From a virus, in UHGV virus genome UHGV-1357462: a DNA stretch of 11,525 nucleotides. One strand, given 5' to 3'. Below are positions 1-11,525 of the stretch, piece after piece. The position numbers were made by a program, and so were the translations under genes. The number at the start of each line of letters is the position of its first letter. Within the stretch, counting starts at the first letter, position 1. The notes under the pieces are model-generated. The model was given only the letters and a program-made list of their open reading frames with translations, was not told where the DNA came from and made no database searches.

Positions 1-786
1 CTGATTGACTGTGCAGCCGAACCGACACAGTTTAACGGACGATCGCTGGTACAGATTGCGCAGGCGCTTGCTGCGCCTTTCGGCATTGAGGTGGTGAACA
101 ACAGTGCGCCGTCGGGTGTTATTCCTGATGTCCAGCCTGATCACGGCGAAACGGTGATTGAGGTGATCAACAAAATACTCGGTCAGCAGCAGGCACTGGC
201 TTACGACGACCCGCACGGCAGGCTGGTGATTGGCGGTATTGGCTCAACGCGGGCACATACCGCGCTGGTACTTGGGGAAAACATCCTTTCCTGTGATACG
301 GAGAAGAGTATCCGGGAGCGGTTTTCAGTTTACCAGGTGGCGGGGCAGCGTGCCGGAAACGACGATGATTTCGGTGAGGCCACCACCACCGCGCTGCGGG
401 CCCGCACAGAGGACGCATTTATTGCCCGTTACCGTCCGATGTATATCAGGCAGACAGGGCAGGCCACGGGGGCAGGCTGTATTGCCCGTGCGGACTTTGA
501 AGCCCGACAACGGGCGGCGCGGACGGATGAAACCACCTATGTGGTGCAGGGATGGCGACAGGGTAACGGTACGCTGTGGCAGCCCAACCAGCGGGTGATT
601 GTCTTCGATCCGGTCTGTGGTTTCGACAATACCGAACTGCTTGTCTCGGAAGTCACGTTTACTCAGGACCAGAACGGCACCCTGACGGAAATCCGTGTCG
701 GCCCACCTGATGCTTATCTGCCTGAACCCGAAGCCCCCGGCGCGCGGAAAAAGAAAAAAGCCAGAGTACAGGAGGACCCGTTCTGA
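1..786 (+). CDS. Baseplate hub / tail protein, P2 gpD (late control D) - Mu P-like; 5'-partial, the frame is open from position 1
   Basis: Frame 1 has no stop from nt 1 to the TGA at 784-786; the 91 start in the ORF track is a GTG inside a longer gene. Its position directly upstream of a gpV-like spike gene and its overlap with it (TGATG at 784-788) match the Mu P-Q / P2 D-V order. Family assignment is from recalled similarity, not a search. Confidence 0.6.
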   Translation: MIDCAAEPTQFNGRSLVQIAQALAAPFGIEVVNNSAPSGVIPDVQPDHGETVIEVINKILGQQQALAYDDPHGRLVIGGIGSTRAHTALVLGENILSCDTEKSIRERFSVYQVAGQRAGNDDDFGEATTTALRARTEDAFIARYRPMYIRQTGQATGAGCIARADFEARQRAARTDETTYVVQGWRQGNGTLWQPNQRVIVFDPVCGFDNTELLVSEVTFTQDQNGTLTEIRVGPPDAYLPEPEAPGARKKKKARVQEDPF

Positions 787-1334
787 TGAGGACGATTGAA
801 GCCATGCAGCGACAACTCCTCGGCCTGATTGGGCGGGCTGTGGTGAAAAGCATCAGTGCCGCCACGAAATGTCAGACCGTGGATGTGTCCCTGATTGCCG
901 GTGAACCCAAAGCCGGGGTTGAACATCTTGAACCCTACGGTTTTACCGCAAGGGCAAACAGCGGTGCGGAAGCGGTGGTGTTGTTTCCGGATGGCGACCG
1001 TTCTCATGCGGTGGTTGTTACGGTGTCGGACCGGCGCTACCGCCTGAAAGGGCTGCAGACGGGTGAGGTGGCTGTCTATGACGATCAGGGGCAGTCCGTG
1101 ACGCTGACCCGGGAGGGGATCGTGGTGGACGGTGCAGGTAAGACGATCACGTTTCGCAATGCGCCCAGAGCACGTTTTGAAATGGACCTGGAAGTGACCG
1201 GACAGGTGAAAGACCTGTGCGACTCCGGCGGCACCACCATGTCAGCGATGCGGCTTGCCTATAACGGGCATCGTCACAGAGAGAACGGTCAGGGCAGTAA
1301 CACCGATAAACCTGATAAAGCGATGGAGGCATGA
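786..1334 (+). CDS. Baseplate spike / assembly protein V-like (P2 gpV, Mu gp45)
   Basis: 182-codon ORF whose ATG at 786 overlaps the upstream stop; its size and position between the hub gene and the GP46/J genes fit the conserved baseplate order. Confidence 0.65.
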   Translation: MRTIEAMQRQLLGLIGRAVVKSISAATKCQTVDVSLIAGEPKAGVEHLEPYGFTARANSGAEAVVLFPDGDRSHAVVVTVSDRRYRLKGLQTGEVAVYDDQGQSVTLTREGIVVDGAGKTITFRNAPRARFEMDLEVTGQVKDLCDSGGTTMSAMRLAYNGHRHRENGQGSNTDKPDKAMEA

Positions 1335-1759
1335 TGGAACTGTGGCTGACGGTGAACGGTAAACGCACCTGCGCCAGCTCACCGCTGGATCCGCTGACCC
1401 GCGCCGTGGTGATTTCCCTGTTCACCTGGCGGCGGGCGGAGCCTGATGACAATGCCGACGTCCCGATGGGATGGTGGGGGGATACCTGGCCTGCGGTACA
1501 GAATGACCGTTACGGCTCCCGACTGTGGCTGCTTCAGCGCAGCAAACTGACCAATCAGCTGGTGCAGACGGTAAGGGGGTATATCCGCGAATGCCTGCAA
1601 TGGATGATTGATGACGGCGTGGTGTCCCGTATTGATCTGGATATCCGCCGCACCGGGATTAATGAGCTGGGTAACAGTATCACCCTCTGGCGTCGTGACG
1701 GACCGGTAATGATTTCTTTTGATGATCTGTGGAGTGCGATAACGCATGGCGGACAGTGA
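1331..1759 (+). CDS. Baseplate protein, phage GP46 family (Mu gp46-like)
   Basis: 142-codon ORF overlapping the upstream stop (ATGATGG). GGAGG at 1325-1329 is better spaced for the second ATG at 1334, so the true start may be 1334. Position between V-like and J-like genes. Confidence 0.55.
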   Translation: MMELWLTVNGKRTCASSPLDPLTRAVVISLFTWRRAEPDDNADVPMGWWGDTWPAVQNDRYGSRLWLLQRSKLTNQLVQTVRGYIRECLQWMIDDGVVSRIDLDIRRTGINELGNSITLWRRDGPVMISFDDLWSAITHGGQ

Positions 1760-2804
1760 ATTTCAGCGCCCGACGCTGGCAGAAAATATCAGTATGCTCC
1801 GTAACGATTTATTCGCCAGGCTGGACGTCAGCGACACGCTCCGGCGCATGGATGAAGACGTGCGGGCAAAGGTGTATGCGGCGGCGCTGCATACGGTTTA
1901 CGGGTACATCGATTATCTGGCAATGAACATGCTGCCTGACCTGTGCGATGAGTCCTGGCTGGCGCGACATGCTGCGATGAAACGGTGTCCGCGCAAGGGG
2001 GCCACGGCTGCCAGCGGGTATATGCGCTGGGAAGGTGTCAGCGATGGCCTGAAGGTGACTGCCGGGAGTGTTATTCAGCGCGATGACCTGGTTCAGTACA
2101 CGGCAACTGCCGATGCAACCAGCTCCGGTGGTGTCCTGCGCGTGCCGATCGCCTGCTCAAGTGCAGGCGCGGTCGGTAACGCTGACGACGGTACGTCATT
2201 AATCCTGGTCACGCCGGTTAATGGTCTGCCGTCTTCCGGCGTGGCAGATACCCTGACAGGTGGATTTGATACTGAAGAGCTGGAAACGTGGCGCGCCCGC
2301 GTCATTGAGCGATATTACTGGACGCCTCAGGGCGGGGCTGACGGGGACTATGTCGTCTGGGCTAAAGAAGTGCCCGGCATTACCCGCGCATGGACATACC
2401 GTCACTGGATGGGAACGGGAACTGTCGGTGTGATGATTGCCAGCAGTGACCTGATTAATCCCATTCCGGAAGAATCAACGGAAACGGCGGCAAGACAACA
2501 CATTGAGCCACTGGCCCCGGTGGCAGGCTCTGATTTGTATGTATTCAGGCCGGTGGCACATACGGTGGATTTTCATATCCGCGTGACGCCGGACACACCA
2601 GAAATACGGGCTGCCATTACCGCGGAGTTGCGTTCGTTCCTGCTGCGTGATGGTTATCCGCAGGGAGAACTGAAGGTATCGCGTATCAGTGAGGCGATTT
2701 CCGGTGCGAACGGGGAATACAGCCATCAGTTGCTTGCACCGGTGGACAATATCTCCATTGCGAAAAATGAGCTGGCGGTTCTGGGGACGATTTCATGGAC
2801 GTGA
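1746..2804 (+). CDS. Baseplate J-like protein (Mu gp47 / P2 gpJ family)
   Basis: 352-codon ORF whose ATG at 1746 overlaps the end of the previous gene (translational coupling). Size and conserved position match baseplate wedge protein J. Confidence 0.75.
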
Positions 2805-3379
2805 CAAACGATGATTACATCCGCCTGTTATCGGCACTGTTGCCGCCCGGTCCTGCATGGTCAGCCAGCGATCCGGCGATTGCCGGTGCGGCACCTTCAT
2901 TAACCCGCGTTCATCAGCGTGCGGATGCTCTGATGCGGGAGCTTGATCCGCGCACCACCACCGAGCTGATAAATCGCTGGGAGCGTCTGTGTGGCCTGCC
3001 GGATGAATGTATTCCCGCAGGGACACAGACCCTTCGCCAGCGTCAGCAACGGCTGGATGCGAAGGTTAACCTGGCGGGTGGCATCAACGAGGATTTTTAT
3101 CTTGCACAGCTTGCTGCCCTGGGCAGACCAGATGCCACCATCACGCGATACGACAAAAGCACGTTCACCTGCTCATCGGCCTGTACTGACGCTGTGAATG
3201 CGCCGGAATGGCGGTATTACTGGCAGGTCAACATGCCAGCCGCCACCAACACCACCTGGATGACATGTGGCGATCCCTGTGATTCCGCGCTGCGTATCTG
3301 GGGCGACACCGTTGTCGAGTGTGTGCTTAACAAACTCTGCCCGTCGCATACCTACGTAATTTTTAAATATCCGGAGTAA
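2795..3379 (+). CDS. Tail/baseplate protein, Mu gp48 / e14 YmfQ-like (DUF2313-type)
   Basis: 194-codon ORF overlapping baseplate J by 10 nt, located immediately before the tail-fibre gene as in Mu and e14; has the N-terminal LLPPGPAW segment I associate with this family. Confidence 0.55.
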
Positions 3380-3382
3380 TCC

Positions 3383-4129
3383 ATGCATCGTATAGACACG
3401 AAAACCGCGCAGAAGGATAAGTTCGGCGCGGGTAAGAACGGTTTTACCCGTGGTAACCCCCAGACAGGCACGCCTGCCACCGATCTGGATGATGACTACT
3501 TTGACATGTTGCAGGAAGAACTCTGCAGCGTGGTGGAGGCATCCGGTGCCAGTCTGGAGAAGGCGCGGCACGACCAACTGCTTACCGCGCTTCGTGCGCT
3601 GCTGTTAAGCCGCAAGAATCCGTTTGGCGATATCAAATCGGATGGCACGGTGAAAACGGCTCTCGAAAACCTTGGTTTGGGAGAAGGTGCTCCAGCTATT
3701 GGCGTTCCGTTCTTCTGGCCGTCCGCTGCAATGCCAAATACTGTAATCGACAGCTGGTCCAGTATGGTGTTTTTGAAGTTCAACGGCGCGAAATTCTCTG
3801 CCACTGATTATCCTGTGCTGGCGAAAGTGTTTCCTTCGCTGGTATTACCTGAAGCCCGCGGTGATTTCATTCGTATCTGGGATGACGGGCGAGGTGCAGA
3901 CGGTGGTCGCGAATTATTAAGCTGGCAGGAAGCTACAAACTTTTCTCAGTTTGCCGGGAATATAGGCGGAGGTGCGGGACACGCAATTAACTTTCATGAT
4001 GGCATCGCCGGAAATCAGCCAGGATTTTCACGATTTAATTTCACCAGTAACTCTGTGGGTGATGGTGTGAATTTTGTTGCTGTCAGACCGCGAAATATTG
4101 CATTTAACTTTCTGGTGAGGGCTAAATAA
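3383..4129 (+). CDS. Tail fibre protein: constant N-terminal part (3383-3672) fused to the currently expressed variable C-terminal part (3673-4129)
   Basis: GGAGT RBS at 3372-3376 and ATG at 3383. A 26-bp invertase crossover site lies inside the gene at 3660-3685. The stop TAA overlaps the ATG of the downstream assembly gene. The N-terminus resembles e14/Mu-type side tail fibre proteins. Confidence 0.8.
3660..3685. repeat. Invertase crossover site (pix/gix-like), left copy, inside the tail-fibre gene
   Basis: TTCTCGAAAACC-TT-GGTTTGGGAGAA: two imperfect 12-bp half-sites around a 2-bp core. 3672-3686 is a perfect 15-bp inverted repeat of 5464-5478, and 22 of 26 positions match the inverted right-hand site. 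Confidence 0.7.
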
Positions 4130-4722
4130 TGAAACCTGTTTTTGATGAAAATGGGCTGGCTACAGTGCCGGGCGATATGCGTTGTTTTTATTATGATGCT
4201 GAAACATCTGAGTATACGGGCTGGTCTGATGAATATATTAATACTGGCGTAAGTATGCCCGCCTGTTCCACTGGTATTGACCCGGGCGAAAACATTCCGG
4301 GGAAAGTGGCAGTATTTACGGGTAAGGGATGGAGCCATGAAGAAGACCATCGCAATGAGACTGTTTACTCAACAGAAAATGGCGCAGCTGTTACAGTGGA
4401 TTATATCGGTGCCATCAAAGACGGTTATGTCACGCTTTCACCGTTAACGCCATACGATAAATGGGATGGTGAGAAATGGGTGACGGATACCGAGGCACAG
4501 CATAGCGCCGCAGTAGACGCGGCAGAAGCACAACGTCAGTCACTGATTGATACTGCAATGGCTTCCATTAGTCTGATTCAACTGAAATTGCAGGCCGGAC
4601 GGAAACTGACGCAGGCAGAAACAACCCGACTTAACGCCGTGCTGGATTACATTGACGCGGTGACGGTAACAGATACCAGCACCGCGCCGGATATCATCTG
4701 GCCTGAACTGCCGGAGGCGTAG
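4129..4722 (+). CDS. Tail fibre assembly protein (Tfa / Mu U-like)
   Basis: 197-codon ORF whose start overlaps the tail-fibre stop (TAATG). Its 3' end overlaps the convergent tfa' gene; the C-terminal motif ...TSTAPDIIWPELP mirrors ...TSSAPDIEWPTPP in the - strand paralogue. Confidence 0.75.
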   Translation: MKPVFDENGLATVPGDMRCFYYDAETSEYTGWSDEYINTGVSMPACSTGIDPGENIPGKVAVFTGKGWSHEEDHRNETVYSTENGAAVTVDYIGAIKDGYVTLSPLTPYDKWDGEKWVTDTEAQHSAAVDAAEAQRQSLIDTAMASISLIQLKLQAGRKLTQAETTRLNAVLDYIDAVTVTDTSTAPDIIWPELPEA

Positions 4723-5113
4723 GCCATTCAATATCTGGCGCACTGGAAGTATCGACCAGCTCCAGTGCGTCCAGATAATCCAGCCACAAATTATATTGCG
4801 CCAGTTCCTCACCTTTCAGACGACCAATAGCCGCTTTACCAGGCCATTGCCTGCTGTTCATGTGCTCGTTGGCTTCATTAATAAGTTTTCCTTTTTTCAA
4901 CTCTGCCAATGCAATAAGGTTTTCTTTTGATAAAGGTGGTTGCTCTGTCAAAACCGGATATCCCTCCTGATTGCTGACTATTTTCATGCCATTATCCTGA
5001 CCATCCAGTAGTGACAGCCATTCATCCGTGGTTATCTCAACAGCATCTGAAGGTGCTTTATTTAAATCGGTAAAAAAACCATTTTCTTTTTGTGAATAGA
5101 AGTATCTGTCCAT
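4694..5113 (-). CDS. Alternative tail fibre assembly protein (Tfa' / U'-like), silent in this orientation
   Basis: 139-codon ORF on the - strand, convergent with and overlapping the + strand tfa by 29 nt. It shares the C-terminal motif with the + strand Tfa and lies 3 nt downstream of the alternative fibre-tip ORF. Confidence 0.7.
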   Translation of the reverse strand: MDRYFYSQKENGFFTDLNKAPSDAVEITTDEWLSLLDGQDNGMKIVSNQEGYPVLTEQPPLSKENLIALAELKKGKLINEANEHMNSRQWPGKAAIGRLKGEELAQYNLWLDYLDALELVDTSSAPDIEWPTPPAVQAR

Positions 5114-5116
5114 TTA

Positions 5117-5518
5117 TCAATCTCCAAAAGCAATCCAGTAAGCAAAAGGATTTATTCCTTGCTCAGTCACAGATGACATCAGGGAAAATTGCGATGGTGA
5201 AACAGGTAATGCTGCAAAACTAACCATTGTTGACACACCTGACCGTGCATTATCGTACGATGCAACAACACAATAATTGGTATTGCTGAAAGATATCGGC
5301 AGGGTGATATTTACAGGTGAGCCTAATGGCCCTGATGCTGATATTCCCATTTGAATGATGGTTCCATCAGGCAATTTTCTCCAGCGATTAGAACTCGGAT
5401 TTCTTTTCCAGGCTGACATATCCGGTATCTGATTTTCTCCTGTGCCTACATCCCTTTTCGCCGCTTCTCCCAAACCAACGTTTATGAAAATGCAGAAATA
5501 ACGAGCAAATGGCATCAT
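5117..5518 (-). CDS. Alternative tail-fibre variable C-terminal segment (Sv'-like), lacking its own start in this orientation
   Basis: The - strand ORF spans the right crossover site. The encoded NVGLGEAAK across the site parallels NLGLGEGA at the left site in the expressed fibre. The ATG at 5518 lies outside the invertible segment and is probably not a real start; functional coding would be 5477 down to 5117 after inversion. Confidence 0.6.
   Translation of the reverse strand: MMPFARYFCIFINVGLGEAAKRDVGTGENQIPDMSAWKRNPSSNRWRKLPDGTIIQMGISASGPLGSPVNITLPISFSNTNYCVVASYDNARSGVSTMVSFAALPVSPSQFSLMSSVTEQGINPFAYWIAFGD
5465..5490. repeat. Invertase crossover site (pix/gix-like), right copy, just upstream of the invertase gene
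   Basis: TTCTCCCAAACC-AA-CGTTTATGAAAA: same 12-2-12 architecture as Hin/Gin/Cin/Pin sites, in inverted orientation relative to 3660-3685, with the core AA versus TT. Confidence 0.7.
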
Positions 5519-5544
5519 TCCTGCTTTTGTCAGGGAGATCTACC

Positions 5545-5901
5545 ATGCTTATTGGCTATGTACGTGTGTCAACAAATGACCAGAACACAGATCTACAGCG
5601 TAATGCGCTGAACTGTGCAGGATGCGAGCTGATTTTTGAAGACAAGATAAGCGGTACAAAGTCTGAAAGGCCGGGACTGAAAAAACTGCTCAGGACATTA
5701 TCGGAAGGTGACACTCTGGTTGTCTGGAAGCTGGATCGGCTGGGGCGTAGTATGCGGCATCTGGTCATTCTGGTTGAGGAGTTGCGCGAACGTGGCGTTA
5801 ATTTTCGCAGCCTAACGGATGCTATTGATATCAGCACGTCGATGGGGCGTTTTTTCTTTTATGTGATGGGGGCCTTGGCTGAAATTGAGTTTCAGGATTA
5901 A
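5545..5901 (+). pseudogene. pin: Pin/Gin/Hin-family serine DNA invertase, truncated: catalytic domain only, C-terminal HTH DNA-binding domain missing
   Basis: Starts MLIGYVRVSTNDQ (active-site Ser region) with AGGGAG upstream. Recalled similarity to e14 PinE runs to about codon 115 (…GALAEIE), then the frame ends after FQD at 5899-5901. Full-length invertases are about 185-190 aa. Neither of the other two frames downstream encodes a recognisable invertase C-terminus. Confidence 0.6.
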
Positions 5902-6061
5902 GCGATATCGTACTCACCCTTGGTCCCACCTAATAAATCTGAAGAACGGAAGCGCTGCCAGATGATGGTGGTGGCTACAATTATTCACACTCAATCTTCG
6001 GAGCAATCACGTACATCATAATGATGTTAGGAATACGGAGTTTAATGACTGTCCAGTGATG

Positions 6062-6091
6062 TAAAAAGAAACCCCGGCGTAGTAGCCGAGG
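6062..6091 (-). terminator. Rho-independent terminator downstream of the peptidase gene
   Basis: On the - strand: CCTCGGC-TACTAC-GCCGGGG (7-bp GC-rich stem with one G-U pair, 6-nt loop) followed by TTTCTTTTT, beginning about 25 nt after the stop. Confidence 0.55.
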
Positions 6092-6114
6092 TCCTCAATC
6101 AGAAACTACAATAT

Positions 6115-7119
6115 TCACTGAGTGCCTTCATCTGGTTGCTCTGCTGGTAAGGTTCCAGCCTCTTCTTCAGTTTCCGCATGTTTTCCATCGCCTCCCTGGA
6201 CAGGTTCATCCCTTGGCGGTTCTGCTCTTCCTGAATTTTGGTCAGAGATTTCATCTCCTTCCTGAATTCTGCTGTTGTCATGGGAATCTTCCTCTGCGTT
6301 AGTTGTTTCATATTGTTTTTTAGGAGTTAAATCTTTAATCATCGGTTTGTCGAAGATAGAGATTTCGCCTGACGAAATCATTTCACCAAGAACTTCGTAC
6401 AGGTTGGCTGCAAAATCTGTAGGACTCTCAACATGGTTGAATAGTTCCCTCGCCTCTTTACGGTCTATCACAAAACCATGGGCTGGATATCCAGCGATCA
6501 ACTTGCCTAATGAGCTTTCCTTAAGATTTTTCGAGTGACTATTCAAACGTTCCCCATAGGAAAGCGCTATGTTCATTGCTCGCTGATGCTCCCCGAGTTT
6601 GATAGGGTCTATCTGTGAGGCCATCGGCGATATGATTGCTTCAGTAAGCTTAGCAGCAATATCTGCAGACATCTTTGTGCTAATTTGGTTTCTGTACTTT
6701 ATATCAAGTACGTATGATCTAAAGGTCGAAATAGCGCACTCTTTTATTTCATCAATCGCCGTTGCGATAACAAGGCCCGAGCTCAATTCGCCGATCTCAT
6801 CATTTTTCTTAAGTTGGATATCTAGAGGGCCAAGCTCACCCATATCACCAATCACGAGCTTATGAGCGGCGACAGCCATCAATGTTCCAGCACTTTTGCA
6901 AGGGCCAACAACTAGAACGGTGATGTGCTCATAGTTGTGTTGCAAAGCGCGGCCAATTCTATATCCTGCGCTGGGATCACCGCCATAGGTAGCGACGCAA
7001 AAAAGAACATTTTTTTGTAAACCATGGTTAGTTTTTCTTTCTTTAATCGCTTTGGTGATGTCGTGATGACCAGAGCGGTGAACATCGCCTATGTATACGT
7101 AAACGTCTGTATCTTGCAT
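6115..7119 (-). CDS. ClpP/crotonase-fold serine peptidase (ClpP / S49 / SDH-like) with a long acidic C-terminal tail
   Basis: 334-codon ORF with AGGGA RBS. By eye the core aligns to ClpP: VATYGGDPSAGYRIGRALQ vs INSPGGVITAGMSIYDTMQ, and ITVLVVGPCKSAGTLMAVAAH vs [21 protein letters not shown], placing a Ser at the nucleophile position. The last 60 or so residues are D/E/G/P-rich. No His at the ClpP His position, so possibly a Ser-Lys dyad. Confidence 0.55.
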   Translation of the reverse strand: MQDTDVYVYIGDVHRSGHHDITKAIKERKTNHGLQKNVLFCVATYGGDPSAGYRIGRALQHNYEHITVLVVGPCKSAGTLMAVAAHKLVIGDMGELGPLDIQLKKNDEIGELSSGLVIATAIDEIKECAISTFRSYVLDIKYRNQISTKMSADIAAKLTEAIISPMASQIDPIKLGEHQRAMNIALSYGERLNSHSKNLKESSLGKLIAGYPAHGFVIDRKEARELFNHVESPTDFAANLYEVLGEMISSGEISIFDKPMIKDLTPKKQYETTNAEEDSHDNSRIQEGDEISDQNSGRAEPPRDEPVQGGDGKHAETEEEAGTLPAEQPDEGTQ

Positions 7120-7427
7120 TTTAATCCCTATGAATAAAATGGTTGAATTTAATGCTGTTCCTCAGCCAAAGCACTGTATCGATAACCAAAATACCTCAGA
7201 TTTGTCGAGAAAACTATCTGGAAAATTAGGCTAACTCTTTGAATCTTCGGAATGCAAAAAAGATAATTTCTCTGGATGGGCGCTAAGTTGATGTGTAAGT
7301 ATGACGGTTAGAACGGTCTCGGAAACCGCAGGCACGTCGTATGCAAGAACGTGCTGCGGCTGGCTGGCGAACTTTCGATAGTGCGAGTATTGAATGATTT
7401 CCAGCCGTTACCGATTTTACGTGTTAA

Positions 7428-7676
7428 TTAGTGAACAAACCACTCGTCAGCAGATTCCCAGGTATCTTTCAGAGTCTCCTGAACAAAAGTTTTTGCAGAA
7501 TCCTTATCTGCGGTGCGTGTAACAGAAAGGCCATCGTTGCTGGTGGCTTTTACGATCACCTCTACATCGTCATAACGTTTACTGATGCGTCGGGTTAATT
7601 CTTCCTTTAACGCATCCACAGCACCGGTTGGCATTTTAGTCATTTTTTCTTTGGCTATGCAGATTTCAATACGCAT
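7428..7676 (-). CDS. dinI: DinI-family SOS-response protein (prophage-borne DinI homologue)
   Basis: 82 codons starting MRIEICIAK and ending …[17 protein letters not shown], closely matching recalled E. coli DinI (MRIEVTIAK…QETWESADDWFV). AGAGGGA RBS, and two LexA boxes in its promoter. Confidence 0.8.
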
Positions 7677-7689
7677 AAAAGTCCCTCTA

Positions 7690-7709
7690 CACTGTGTTTG
7701 TATACAGTA
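7690..7709 (-). promoter_or_regulatory. LexA (SOS) box, promoter-proximal
   Basis: - strand TACTGTATACAAACACAGTG, i.e. CTGT-N8-ACAG with flanking TA, close to the consensus TACTGT(AT)4ACAGTA; about 14 nt upstream of the dinI-like start and overlapping the predicted transcript start region. Confidence 0.7.
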
Positions 7710-7712
7710 TTA

Positions 7713-7741
7713 TTTTTAACTGTATGAATAAACAGTGTCAA
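7713..7741 (-). promoter_or_regulatory. Sigma70-type promoter for the dinI-like gene
   Basis: - strand TTGACA (7741-7736), 17-nt spacer, TAAAAA (7718-7713). Perfect -35 and acceptable -10, with both LexA boxes placed for repression. Confidence 0.5.
7718..7737 (-). promoter_or_regulatory. Second LexA (SOS) box, in the -35/-10 spacer
   Basis: - strand CACTGTTTATTCATACAGTT, CTGT-N8-ACAG, immediately abutting the -35 hexamer. Confidence 0.65.
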
Positions 7742-7760
7742 TAGAACAAAGATTGCTGCA

Positions 7761-8178
7761 TGTACAAATGTTCTTTGGCTACAAATACACCTACTGATCA
7801 TGTTCTGCTATGCTCTGATACCTCCAAAATGTACAATCAGCGGCATGAATTTTTCTTTGTACATATGATTGTACATAATTAAAGAGACAACAATTATGAC
7901 AAGCCTTTTGGCCGCAGAGGTAGCGAAAAGAAGAACCTTTGCAATTATTTCTCACCCCAATAATTAAGTCCAAATTAAAGCTCTTTTACTCTTTCAAAAT
8001 CCTTTCAGTTAATTGAAGTTGAGCTATATAACTCATTTAAATACATTTGTTTATGTAGCTTCTTTAATTGAAAACTCTTTCATGTAACTTTAAATCGATC
8101 AGCTTGCTTTCATCAAAAACCTGTACATATGCTTGTACATAATGTACAAAACAGCAGAGGTGTTTTGCGATTTGTACA
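7761..8178. repeat. AT-rich array of eight TGTACA(W)A motifs including a 22-bp direct repeat; candidate integrase arm sites / attP or operator array
   Basis: TGTACA at 7761, 7830, 7858, 7870, 8122, 8134, 8143 and 8173. The 22-mers at 7858-7879 (TGTACATATGATTGTACATAAT) and 8122-8143 (TGTACATATGCTTGTACATAAT) match at 21 of 22 positions. Sits between the dinI promoter and the integrase start. Confidence 0.6.
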
Positions 8179-8187
8179 AGGTGAGTA

Positions 8188-9411
8188 ATGGCGCTGTCTG
8201 ATGCGTGGTTGCGTTCAGTCGTTGGAAAGGAACGTGATAAGGTTTTGGTTAAATCCGATCGTGATGGTCTGTCTGTCAGAGTATCACCGAAAGGTCGCGT
8301 AGTGTTCCAATATCGTTATCAATGGGCAGGGAAAGGTGAGCGTCTTGATATCGGAACTTACCCGGCAACTGGATTAAAAGAGGCCAGAGAAGAAGTTATC
8401 CGTCTTCGTGGTGAACTCGAGTCAAACCGTAATCCACGATTGGTCAAGCAGGCTGAAAAACGAAAAGCTACTGAAGCCATGACGGTAGAGTCTGTGATCC
8501 GTGCTTGGTATGAAGCATATTGTGTAAAAAATAAAAAAGGTTCTGAACAGATACTTCGCTCGTTTGAGCTGCACCTGTTCTCTAAAATCGGGAATATCCC
8601 TCACGATGCAGCTACATTGCATGATTGGTTAGAAGTCCTGGAGCCTCTTAGCACTAAGACTCCAGCAATAGCAGACCGATTGCTAATTAACGCAAAGCAG
8701 GCCCATGTCTGGGCGTATAAGAGAAAGCTCATTGAAACTCGCCCGCTGTCGGATATCACGGGTAAAGATATGGATATCCGTAAAGGTCAGAAGAAACGGT
8801 TTCTGACACATGATGAAATTAAAATCCTTTATGCTGCGATCGATGGTTCTCGAATGGTTCCTAAATACCGGGCCTTCATTAAACTATTGCTGCATTTTGG
8901 TTGCCGTAGTTCAGAGCTAATTACCGCCCGGGTGGACGATTTTGATTTCATTAATAAAGTATGGACTGTACCACCAGAACGACATAAGACAGGGGAGATA
9001 ACAGGCGAACCGCTAAAGCGGCCCATTATTGAACCGGTTGAAGAGCTTATAAAGTACGCTATCTCTATGAACAATGGTTCCGATATGCTTTTTACTAAGG
9101 AAGGAAGCAGGGAACCCGTTGGTCGGACATCATTGCAGTCGCTGCCTTACAATTTAATGCAGTACGCATGGCGGTGTTTAGGATATCAATTCCCTCATTG
9201 GTCTCTTCATGACTTGAGACGTACAGCTCGAACAAATTTTTCTGATCTTACTGCGCCTCATATCGCAGAAATTATGCTTGGTCATAAGCTGCCAGGGGTA
9301 TGGCAAGTTTATGATAAGAGCGATTATCTAGAAGAACAGCGTAAAGCTTACCTGGCATGGTGGAAGAGGGTTGAATCGATTGTTAATTGTACTATCTCTG
9401 ATTCAAACTGA
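8188..9411 (+). CDS. int: Tyrosine integrase, P4-type, with an N-terminal arm-binding (DUF4102-like) domain
   Basis: 407 codons with AAGGTGAG RBS. N-terminal …GLSVRVSPKGRVVFQYRY… is typical of P4-family integrases. Catalytic-domain hallmarks are present: LHFGCRSSEL (Arg), HDLRRTART (His-x-x-Arg) and LGHK…VYDKSDY (His and Tyr). Confidence 0.9.
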   Translation: MALSDAWLRSVVGKERDKVLVKSDRDGLSVRVSPKGRVVFQYRYQWAGKGERLDIGTYPATGLKEAREEVIRLRGELESNRNPRLVKQAEKRKATEAMTVESVIRAWYEAYCVKNKKGSEQILRSFELHLFSKIGNIPHDAATLHDWLEVLEPLSTKTPAIADRLLINAKQAHVWAYKRKLIETRPLSDITGKDMDIRKGQKKRFLTHDEIKILYAAIDGSRMVPKYRAFIKLLLHFGCRSSELITARVDDFDFINKVWTVPPERHKTGEITGEPLKRPIIEPVEELIKYAISMNNGSDMLFTKEGSREPVGRTSLQSLPYNLMQYAWRCLGYQFPHWSLHDLRRTARTNFSDLTAPHIAEIMLGHKLPGVWQVYDKSDYLEEQRKAYLAWWKRVESIVNCTISDSN

Positions 9412-9697
9412 CGGTTTGTATCACCTGAACATAACCAAATCTCCTAGCACACTTTGAGCGAGATGTGAGCGTTAAGTTTACGCCATTGTGTTGACATAAG
9501 AGGGGGGCGGGTATCGATATCATCACTATCCCTATGCCCCTAAATCGCTCCTGCCATTTGATAAATGCAGATGTTTACCACCAAATGTTTTTGATACTAT
9601 AGGTCGATTCATGATTTACCTAGAAACTTAGTTGTAACGAAAACTTCTTAACGGACACTATCTGGATAAAGTTAGTTTTTTATTTAAGAGGGTTAAC

Positions 9698-10417
9698 ATG
9701 TCAAAGTTAAAAAATGAACCATTAGTAAGGGTATCAGAAGAAGACGGAATAGAAATAAGGAAGATCCAATATCCAGATAATACGATAGAAAGAATTTATA
9801 AGCAGAAAGGTGTAATATTACCACGAATACCTTTAAAAGGCCGCTTTGTAGAACAATATGTGGCCTTACAGTTGCTTGATAAAGATCTTCGGAATGTTAT
9901 TGGTTGGGAGAATATAATAAAAAACATTTGTAATAACATTAATAAAGAACAACACTTTATTTATCCGGATTTAGAAAAGAATCTAATATTAAAGTCTTTA
10001 TTTATATCAAAAGTTGTTACTTACGGTAAGTGTTTTACAGAGGCGAAAGGGCGTCGATTCACATTGCAGAGAAAGCATGTGCCAGAAAAATACAGAGATT
10101 TACATGATTCTATTATGAATGTTAGACATAACTTTGCTGCCCATAAAGGTGAATTCGAATATGATCAATGTGGCTTGGTTTTAATATTGCCGGGGACCAA
10201 GAAGAAAAGGTACTATCATATTTTTTCAGAGCTCAATCAAATAAATTACGGTAATAATGAGGAAGATGATGAACGTTTTTTTATGTTATATGATTCACTG
10301 CGTGAAGTCATTAAAGAAAAACAAGATAAATTAATTGATAAAATATACGCTGAAAAGATTCATACTCAAACAATGGAGTATTGGTTGAGCCGAGCAGGAA
10401 AAGAAACAGAGATTTAA
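9698..10417 (+). CDS. Hypothetical protein, very AT-rich orphan cargo gene; weak HEPN-like R-x5-H motif (VRHNFAAH)
   Basis: 239 codons with a strong RBS (AAGAGGG, 10 nt before the ATG). Clearly lower G+C than all neighbours. No family recognised beyond an R-x5-H spacing compatible with the loose HEPN Rx4-6H signature. Sits between the integrase and the AlpA-like gene. Confidence 0.7.
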   Translation: MSKLKNEPLVRVSEEDGIEIRKIQYPDNTIERIYKQKGVILPRIPLKGRFVEQYVALQLLDKDLRNVIGWENIIKNICNNINKEQHFIYPDLEKNLILKSLFISKVVTYGKCFTEAKGRRFTLQRKHVPEKYRDLHDSIMNVRHNFAAHKGEFEYDQCGLVLILPGTKKKRYYHIFSELNQINYGNNEEDDERFFMLYDSLREVIKEKQDKLIDKIYAEKIHTQTMEYWLSRAGKETEI

Positions 10418-10699
10418 TTTGTTCAGTATATAAAAGCTAATTTTTAAGGAGTAATTTTAAGATGATTAAAGCTGATTACATTGCGATAGGTACTCTACGA
10501 CTAACTTTTCAACAAGATTAAGGGGGTAATCAATTTTATTTGTATCAATGGTATGACATTTCTTGGTGATAATGTTTTGATCTTATCGATTCATGTCATA
10601 TGGTCATTGGTGACGTCCGCTCTTGGTAAAGAGTGGACGCTCAGATTAGGTTTGGCATCTAAGCATAGATGTGTCAGCTCACATCTAAGCTAATACATA

Positions 10700-10894
10700 T
10701 TACTCAATCACTCCCGCAAATCTGTAAATCTTGTGTGATGCCCATTTATTTGGGCAGGATTTAATATCAGGATCTGGAAAGTCAGGCCTGTATTTCTGAC
10801 CAGTTCTCCTGTTTACGCTGTTCCAGCGAAGAACTGTCGATACTGAAACACCACAGAAATCGGCGACTTGTTTAGTTGTCATTAAGTTGTTCAT
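10700..10894 (-). CDS. AlpA/Xis-family helix-turn-helix DNA-binding protein (excisionase / transcriptional regulator-like)
   Basis: 64 codons. N-terminal TTKQVADFCGVSVSTVLRW looks like an HTH. GGAGG RBS, and the start overlaps the upstream gene's stop (TAATG). Small size and position next to the integrase region fit this family. Confidence 0.6.
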   Translation of the reverse strand: MNNLMTTKQVADFCGVSVSTVLRWNSVNRRTGQKYRPDFPDPDIKSCPNKWASHKIYRFAGVIE

Positions 10895-11525
10895 TACTTC
10901 ACCTCCTGCGGCGGCTCCGGTAGTGGCATCCAGTGGGTTACTTTCGATGCCTGTTCTTCCTCATTGTCAGTAACTGCCCACCATTTGTTTCTCGACCAAT
11001 CGTAATACCCTTCGAAGGTATCGCACTCAGTCCAGCCGTAAGACTTCCCCCAACACCAAACATACTGTTTATCATTCGGCATTCGCTCACTACAGCTTAT
11101 CCAACCACCCGGACTTACCGGAGAGTTGCCAGACAGCGCGTTCTGCAGCCGTTCCAGCTTAACGTATTCCTGAACCCTGTTTCCGTCGCACACCTGAAGC
11201 CATTGCGCAGCCTTTTGCGCATCAGTGTGAAAGGCACAAGTGCGACCGTCATCAAATTGCATTTCGTAGAGGTCAGCAACTTGTTCAAACTGCGTGTGTG
11301 GTGACTTGTAAGTTTGGTTTACAGGTTCGGCACCATGAAGCATGGCGGCGCGGCAGGCGTTCCAGCCTTCATCAAAACCGACTATGCCATTATTTAAAGA
11401 CGGACGAGCATCTGGCACTACCGGCACTGGCTTGGCTATATATAGCGGCTGAACATACCAGCCCTTTGATAACCAACTGTCAGCAATGTTTTTACACCTC
11501 GTTATTGCCGGAATACCTAAGCCAT
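10894..11525 (-). CDS. Phage early-region protein with a C-terminal DUF551-like domain; 5'-partial, the frame is open to the window end
   Basis: The reading frame has no stop between 11525 and the ORF-track start, which is a GTG with no good RBS, so the gene most likely starts beyond the window. The W-rich C-terminus (WISCSERMPNDKQYVWCWG…THWMPLPEPP) is typical of DUF551 domains in lambdoid early regions. Translationally coupled to the AlpA-like gene. Confidence 0.55.
   Translation of the reverse strand, partial: GLGIPAITRCKNIADSWLSKGWYVQPLYIAKPVPVVPDARPSLNNGIVGFDEGWNACRAAMLHGAEPVNQTYKSPHTQFEQVADLYEMQFDDGRTCAFHTDAQKAAQWLQVCDGNRVQEYVKLERLQNALSGNSPVSPGGWISCSERMPNDKQYVWCWGKSYGWTECDTFEGYYDWSRNKWWAVTDNEEEQASKVTHWMPLPEPPQEVK

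Follow-up and report, generated by a model that had tools for sequence, protein, structure and literature searches.

Phages cdtI, 2H10 and Ayreon, together with the Stx1a/Stx2c prophage module, all integrate at prfC, the gene for release factor RF3 (PMC10132054, PMC8065619, PMC8138268). The gene appears in the list of Stx phage integration sites (PMC8065619), and in clonal complex 119 both Stx1a and Stx2c phages are inserted there (PMC10132054). In 2H10, cdtI and Ayreon, the genes follow the order tail fibre, an optional invertase, cargo, dinI (not in Ayreon), the phage attachment site (attP), int, a variable open reading frame (ORF), and xis. The subject of this report is a stretch of 11,525 nucleotides (nt) from the UHGV virus genome UHGV-1357462, called the window below, in which the order is baseplate, invertible tail fibres, a dead invertase, cargo, dinI, attP, int, cargo, and xis. 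The order dinI, attP, int, variable ORF, xis, DUF551 is the same in the window and in cdtI and 2H10, and Ayreon has attP, int and xis in the same order but without dinI. The attP DNA at 7780–8119 is 95–97% identical in the three phages, and the Int proteins are 98–99% identical. The window is very probably part of a single temperate E. coli phage, seen in the gene order of the vegetative or circular form, with an attP of the form P-core-P′ that is directed at prfC.

The likeness to the three phages is confined to one part of the window. cdtI, 2H10 and Ayreon are long-tailed, λ-like phages, whereas the window phage has genes for a contractile tail of the SfV/Mu type, and the module shared with them begins only at about 7320. 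The cargo differs as well, being an SDH-like protease in the window and cdtABC or other genes in the cdtI-type phages. For the tail, the closest relatives are found elsewhere. The baseplate genes of SfV are 97–98% identical to those of the window, and e14 has an invertible fibre segment with a Pin-type invertase that resembles the window's, although the invertase in the window is truncated. SfV integrates at a tRNA gene, and e14 integrates at icd.

Two further groups of elements are instructive for the integration module. The SXT/R391 elements, which are conjugative elements of about 100 kb and not phages, likewise use prfC, and the integrase of the cdtI phage and IntSXT have been grouped as one cluster of tyrosine recombinases that insert next to this gene (PMC8138268). 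The phage restores the prfC reading frame as the SXT elements do, with a promoter that would come from the phage. The same logic, insertion at the 5′ end of a conserved gene and a replacement start supplied by the element, applies to the dusA-targeting phages and islands such as SKA5 and IMEVchUSA3 (PMC8409611). These differ in the target gene and in the integrase, which has 365 amino acids and the opposite orientation. Phage SKA5 (8576–10901) has the order tail fibre, invertase, dinI, int beside a fragment of dusA (tRNA-dihydrouridine synthase); its invertase is intact, and a protease gene is absent. The feature described here is a known integration module carried by a mosaic SfV-like phage; the arrangement is ordinary and already described, and nothing in the finding alters current understanding. 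Having attP fixed to the base nevertheless helps to delimit prfC prophages, including those of the Stx- and Cdt-converting phages.

The attachment site and its integrase

The core of the attachment site is the 14-bp sequence ATTATTTCTCACCC, at 7944–7957 on the plus strand. In a base-by-base, four-way comparison of attP, the empty bacterial site attB, and the prophage junctions attL and attR, the core is identical in all four. It matches codons 17–21 of the host prfC, which encode I-I-S-H-P. Left of the core, the window is the same as attR of the prophage in E. coli bR_120_Kylling, with 0 mismatches in 400 nt, and the two sequences diverge right after the core. Right of the core, the window corresponds to attL of the same prophage, with 1 mismatch in 400 nt, and divergence sets in at the base preceding the core. 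The empty prfC site of K-12, attB, carries the complementary arms. The four sites are thus related as follows: P-core-P′ in the window, B-core-P′ (beside int) and P-core-B′ (beside dinI) in lysogens, and B-core-B′ in K-12. The P arm, the core and the P′ arm are contiguous in the window, with no host flank, as in an unintegrated genome. The core occurs once in the window, and therefore no attL/attR pair is present there. By this comparison, the segment from about 7732 to 8187 reads as an intact attP.

A 42-bp overlap (7916–7957), obtained in the first megablast, was considered as the core and rejected, since only 14 bp are identical. The remainder of the overlap is a partial similarity between host and phage prfC codons.

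The original prediction was that the tail module, cargo and integrase are contiguous without a host junction, possibly in an unintegrated attP arrangement. The map of ORFs and domains, in which dinI belongs to the same unbroken run, agrees with the first of these statements. The second is upheld by the P-core-P′ structure, as set against attL and attR of the lysogens, and by the dinI-attP-int order in deposited phages.

Five phage copies of attP can be aligned from 7732 up to the start codon of int. The outer limit of the P arm is placed at 7732 because Ayreon, which lacks dinI, begins its homology at that position. The five copies vary at 4 of the 212 columns of the P arm, at 30 of the 230 columns of P′, and at about 6.7% of the columns of int (8188–9387). 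The non-coding P arm is more conserved than the adjoining integrase gene. In Ayreon, a C replaces A at the equivalent of 7943, so that 20 bp instead of 14 are identical to K-12 prfC.

The integrase encoded next to attP has the Pfam domains Arm-DNA-bind_3, Phage_int_M and Phage_integrase. Its tyrosine recombinase catalytic domain extends over residues 205–379 (Phage_integrase, E = 3e-17), and the HDLRRT, LGH and C-terminal Tyr motifs are seen in the translation. The arm-type DNA-binding domain is recognized both by Arm-DNA-bind_3 (E = 2e-16) and by a match to 3jtz, the N-domain of a CP4-like integrase. The protein shares 97–100% identity with the integrases encoded by cdtI, 2H10, Ayreon and prfC prophages; for the cdtI phage integrase, the one named in the prfC-targeting cluster, the amino acid identity is 98%. 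Where an identical Int protein was found in assemblies, yjjG lies upstream in 10 of the 10 long-contig contexts shown, which is the integrated state. More distant relatives, at 61–83% identity, are encoded in Trabulsiella, Pantoea, Serratia and Candidatus Symbiopectobacterium, and in all of these the gene is located about 230 bp past the same codons of prfC. The same position in prfC is used in five genera. The attP core is identical to the 5′ end of prfC, and the lysogen junctions are found there. The SXT core presumably coincides with the one described here.

We propose that integration proceeds as follows. The integrase would bind the core, and probably also the TGTACA repeats of both arms, and would recombine attP with prfC. 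The original prfC promoter and the first 22 codons would stay behind at attL as a dead stub beside int. At attR, the P arm would give prfC a new start codon, 16 new in-frame codons, and presumably a promoter, so that RF3 would be made at full length. Xis, acting with Int, would reverse the recombination.

Origin of the window

Complete E. coli genomes, 5,426 in number, were searched with a junction query of 341 nt (7780–8120). The two halves of the query were found split in 701 of them (about 13%), at a median of two places per genome. The intact junction was found in a single E. coli record, p13P484A-1, which is circular, 33.7 kb in length, and phage DNA. The phage collection has the intact junction in Ayreon, 2H10 and cdtI, and the records of Stx1a and Stx2c prophages start or end at it. 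The window as a whole was never matched in one piece in the E. coli genomes; 1–7957 matched in one place and 7916–11525 in another.

bR_120_Kylling has one prophage of about 41 kb between yjjG and prfC, and the two ends of that prophage correspond to the two halves of the window. From yjjG, the order is a short dead prfC stub, int, early genes, lysis, head, tail, the invertase remnant, the SDH-like protease, dinI, and a complete prfC. APEC E19025 carries a prophage arranged in this way too, again with about 41 kb from yjjG to prfC. Since both halves are the ends of a single prophage, the window is a circular permutation of it. The window can thus be read as one phage, in the order of the phage form, and as neither the end of a prophage nor two elements; its DNA would have been in the unintegrated state.

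Several observations weigh against this reading. The best coverage of the window at any single place is 69% in the E. coli genomes and 39% in phages, and none of them contains the whole window. The exact attP junction string returned nothing from IMG/VR (two patterns), the GTDB representative genomes, or the JGI metagenomes. A search for the integration host factor (IHF) consensus WATCAANNNNTTR gave zero matches, and sigma-70 scans gave only weak candidates for a promoter of the hybrid prfC, none of them convincing. The binding of Int to TGTACA is likewise putative. Finally, the window, taken alone, is as compatible with the internal P-core-P′ junction of tandem prophages as with a free phage genome.

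The last point leads to the alternative that survives best, which we nonetheless consider improbable. The window would be chromosomal and would span the point at which two prophages, integrated in tandem at prfC, meet. A right arm like that of APEC E19025 would be joined there, through the core, to a left arm like that of bR_120 or RMDEC465, forming a hybrid attP. Positions 1–7957 are indeed 100% identical to the APEC E19025 prophage, whose int side differs (Int at 98% identity, and another cargo ORF), and the best matches to 7916–11525 come from other strains. SXT/R391 elements are documented to form tandem arrays at prfC (PMC5812530), and such arrays have been proposed for Stx phages (PMC10132054). 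Yet the chromosome carries an intact junction in none of the 701 E. coli genomes whose site is occupied. Mosaic exchange of the cargo beside int, which is common among these phages, accounts equally well for best matches from different strains.

There is only a very slight probability that the junction is an artefact, either of a prophage circularised computationally or of attL and attR collapsed through the core during assembly. The absence of the exact string from the viral-contig, genome-representative and metagenome collections would fit such an origin. However, a core of 14 bp is too short for assembly collapse, and the junction is 95–97% identical in independently sequenced phages and is found in one circular record.

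Least probable of all, and contradicted by these comparisons, is the second option of the original prediction, an e14-like remnant abutting another integrase-bearing element. A tail and invertase remnant would then lie beside an unrelated integrase island whose att site is elsewhere. In favour of this reading, the fibre, invertase and YmfQ genes are e14-like (the homologues are called ymfQ and tfaE in RefSeq), a recombination scar near 5889 cuts the invertase short, and the GC content declines from about 58% to about 43%. Against it, the two halves are the ends of a single complete prophage that has head, tail, lysis and early genes; the tail module is whole, SfV-like and no remnant; the sole att sequence lies exactly between dinI and int; and the joints at 5889 and about 7320 are internal ones that also occur inside single prophages. 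The distinguishing properties of e14, namely integration at icd, the e14 integrase and the state of a defective remnant, are absent, as the core is prfC and the relatives are complete prophages of about 41 kb. The single phage with its attP at prfC is therefore the reading used in what follows.

The substitute prfC start and the arm motifs

The sequence at 7896–7957 resembles the first 62 nt of the host prfC, reading ATG ACA AGC ... TCT CAC CC, and it is the sole host-like stretch of the window. The host allele has another base just left of the core, with many further differences farther out, and the stretch is also present in the sequenced genomes of phages 2H10, cdtI and Ayreon. Because it is found in sequenced phages and differs from the host allele, it is phage DNA and marks no host junction. 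This bears on what the original prediction named as evidence against its own attP reading, a fragment of a host gene or tRNA with a duplicated core sequence. A prfC-like fragment is present, but it is phage-borne and the core is in single copy; scans of the window for tRNA genes and for Rfam families were both empty.

In lysogens, the substitute start is annotated in RefSeq as the beginning of a complete prfC, for a protein of 528 amino acids. The hybrid RF3 (528 amino acids) differs from that of K-12 at residues 3–8, and by one polymorphism at residue 451. Judged from these sequences, the prfC reading frame is restored after integration, and RF3 would be full length. One survey counts prfC among the genes disrupted by prophages (PMC3603311); in contrast to that listing, prfC is apparently not inactivated by these phages.

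The hexamer TGTACA is the most distinctive motif of the arms. All eight copies in the window fall within 7761–8178, against 2.45 expected window-wide, and no shuffled sequence reached eight. A 22-nt unit, TGTACATATGNTTGTACATAAT, is present on both arms, at 7858–7879 and at 8122–8143. When the diverged P′ arms of the four other genera are compared, three islands stay invariant, namely the core, a tandem pair of TGTACA, and a TGTACA 15 nt before the int start. The TGTACA motifs are predicted to be arm-type integrase sites, and they possibly double as control elements of int.

It is tempting to propose that the P arm serves, beyond recombination, as a lysogenic-conversion device that rewires RF3, although we regard this as unlikely. 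In lysogens, the DNA directly upstream of the new prfC start codon is phage DNA with four TGTACA copies, and the SOS-controlled dinI promoter is next to it. The high conservation of the P arm (the 4 variable columns of 212, against 30 of 230 in P′ and 6.7% in int) would fit selection on the expression of RF3. If the proposal were true, lysogeny would alter the termination or the fidelity of translation.

The two LexA-box-like sites overlap a minus-strand promoter-like site for dinI at 7741–7712. The substitute start of prfC follows about 160 bp downstream of these sites, and in the lysogen prfC adjoins the SOS-controlled dinI promoter in divergent orientation.

Tail genes, cargo and mosaic joints

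The features of the window, mapped from the ORF listing and from scans of composition and domains, are collected in Table 1. The phage combines tail genes of the SfV/Mu type with a lambdoid early region. Positions 1–3686 are 97–98% identical to phages SfV, SfI, SfII and SfIV, the match to SfV stopping at 3686. Baseplate genes of the Mu gp44–48 type, highly similar to those of SfV, place the tail module among the SfV-like phages; the integrase and att site are of the prfC type and not of the SfV type.

Table 1. Coordinates of genes, sites and motifs in the 11,525-nt window, with strand and basis or remarks.
Feature	Position	Strand	Basis or remarks
Mu/SfV-type baseplate genes (gp44/P-like, gp45/V, gp46, J/gp47, gp48/YmfQ)	1–3379	+	Pfam
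Invertible tail-fibre segment	3383–5518	both	Pfam Caudo_TAP (twice), Gp53-like_C
Expressed fibre	3383–4129	+	
Assembly protein of expressed fibre	4129–4722	+	
Silent alternative assembly protein	4694–5113	-	
Alternative fibre C-terminus	5117–5518	-	
Right-hand crossover site for fibre inversion, CTTCTCCCAAACCAACGTTT	5464–5483		Inverted repeat; start of the region singled out in the original prediction
Truncated Pin-like serine invertase, 118 amino acids	5545–5901	+	Pfam Resolvase, E = 4.6e-40
S24 (LexA-type) peptidase gene fragment	5891–6064	+	Frameshifted and without its N-terminus, as annotated in RefSeq for DNA of 100% identity
Cargo gene, SDH/ClpP-fold serine-protease-like protein, 334 amino acids	6115–7119	-	
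dinI-like gene	7428–7676	-	Pfam DinI, E = 1e-19; phrog_189
Non-coding gap, 511 bp	7677–8187		
Two LexA-box-like sites (CTGT-N8-ACAG)	7692–7707, 7720–7735		2 matches, 0.11 expected by chance
P arm of attP	7732–7943	+	In lysogens at attR, directly upstream of prfC
TGTACA on P arm	7761, 7830, 7858, 7870		
Phage-borne substitute prfC start	7896–7967	+	ATG at 7896; in attP form a 23-codon ORF, stop at 7965–7967
P′ arm of attP	7958–8187	+	In lysogens at attL, between dead prfC stub and int
TGTACA on P′ arm	8122, 8134, 8143, 8173		
Tyrosine integrase, 407 amino acids	8188–9411	+	N-terminal arm-binding domain
Cargo ORF, 239 amino acids, about 30% GC (AT-rich)	9698–10417	+	phrog_8440 (no known function); variable int-xis slot
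Excisionase (recombination directionality factor), 64 amino acids	10700–10894	-	phrog_1553, E = 4e-36; weak HTH_17/MerR
DUF551 early-region gene	10894–11427	-	Pfam DUF551, E = 2e-17

The fibre segment is flanked by an intact 20-nt inverted repeat (3667–3686 and 5464–5483) whose arms are 95% complementary, and both orientations of the segment occur across strains. The serine recombinase catalytic domain and the inverted crossover sites at alternative fibre ends are those of the Din family (Pin/Gin/Cin/Hin), and the C-terminal helix-turn-helix domain of the intact enzyme is missing. The window invertase ends at residue 118 of about 187, without the C-terminal DNA-binding part; its alignment to the intact invertases of 187 and 196 amino acids (phages SKA5 and 2H10) ends near residue 115, and in the annotation of 100% identical DNA it is a pseudogene. 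Either inversion predates the truncation of the invertase, or another invertase acts in trans. An invertase remnant of 106 or 118 amino acids is called in most of the related prophages viewed, and in three none is called.

The S24 peptidase fragment that follows is a recombination scar, and the match to some relatives ends at 5888. GC content declines over this region, from about 58% to about 43%. The cargo block 5889–7321 is absent from deposited phage genomes and common in E. coli prophages, and 7320–11525 is common to the λ-like, long-tailed prfC phages. The scar near 5889 and the boundary of the shared module near 7320 are internal mosaic joints, which are also present inside single prophages, and not as element boundaries.

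For the 334-residue cargo protein, the Pfam SDH_protease and NCBIfam Clp_like_SDH matches are sub-threshold and cover the first ~100 residues, and the protein matches phrog_21683, a PHROG without known function, over its full length. A single-sequence AlphaFold model of it had a predicted local distance difference test (pLDDT) score of 37 and was unusable. PADLOC gave zero defence-system matches for this protein or for the 239-residue ORF, and the latter also had zero matches in Pfam and NCBIfam.

Two cargo slots, 5889–7427 and 9412–10699, flank the dinI-attP-int block and are filled differently in relatives. The window has the SDH-like protease and the 239-residue ORF of about 30% GC. p13P484A-1 has a reverse transcriptase with a TIR protein, and an AIPR protein; cdtI has cdtABC and effector genes; other ORFs occupy the slots in Ayreon, cdtI and APEC E19025. 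In the E. coli record CDRUNC010000001.1 (12398–19224), the early region of a prfC prophage beyond DUF551 is replaced by transposases and by beta-lactamase and acetyltransferase genes, which is a resistance-gene insertion within the prophage. The integration module itself is exchanged. In OZ039343.1 (2159–6005), the same block of tail genes, pin remnant, SDH-like protease gene and dinI is joined to a dusA-type integrase of 365 amino acids. The module is swapped between the prfC and the dusA types, both of which replace the 5′ end of the target gene.

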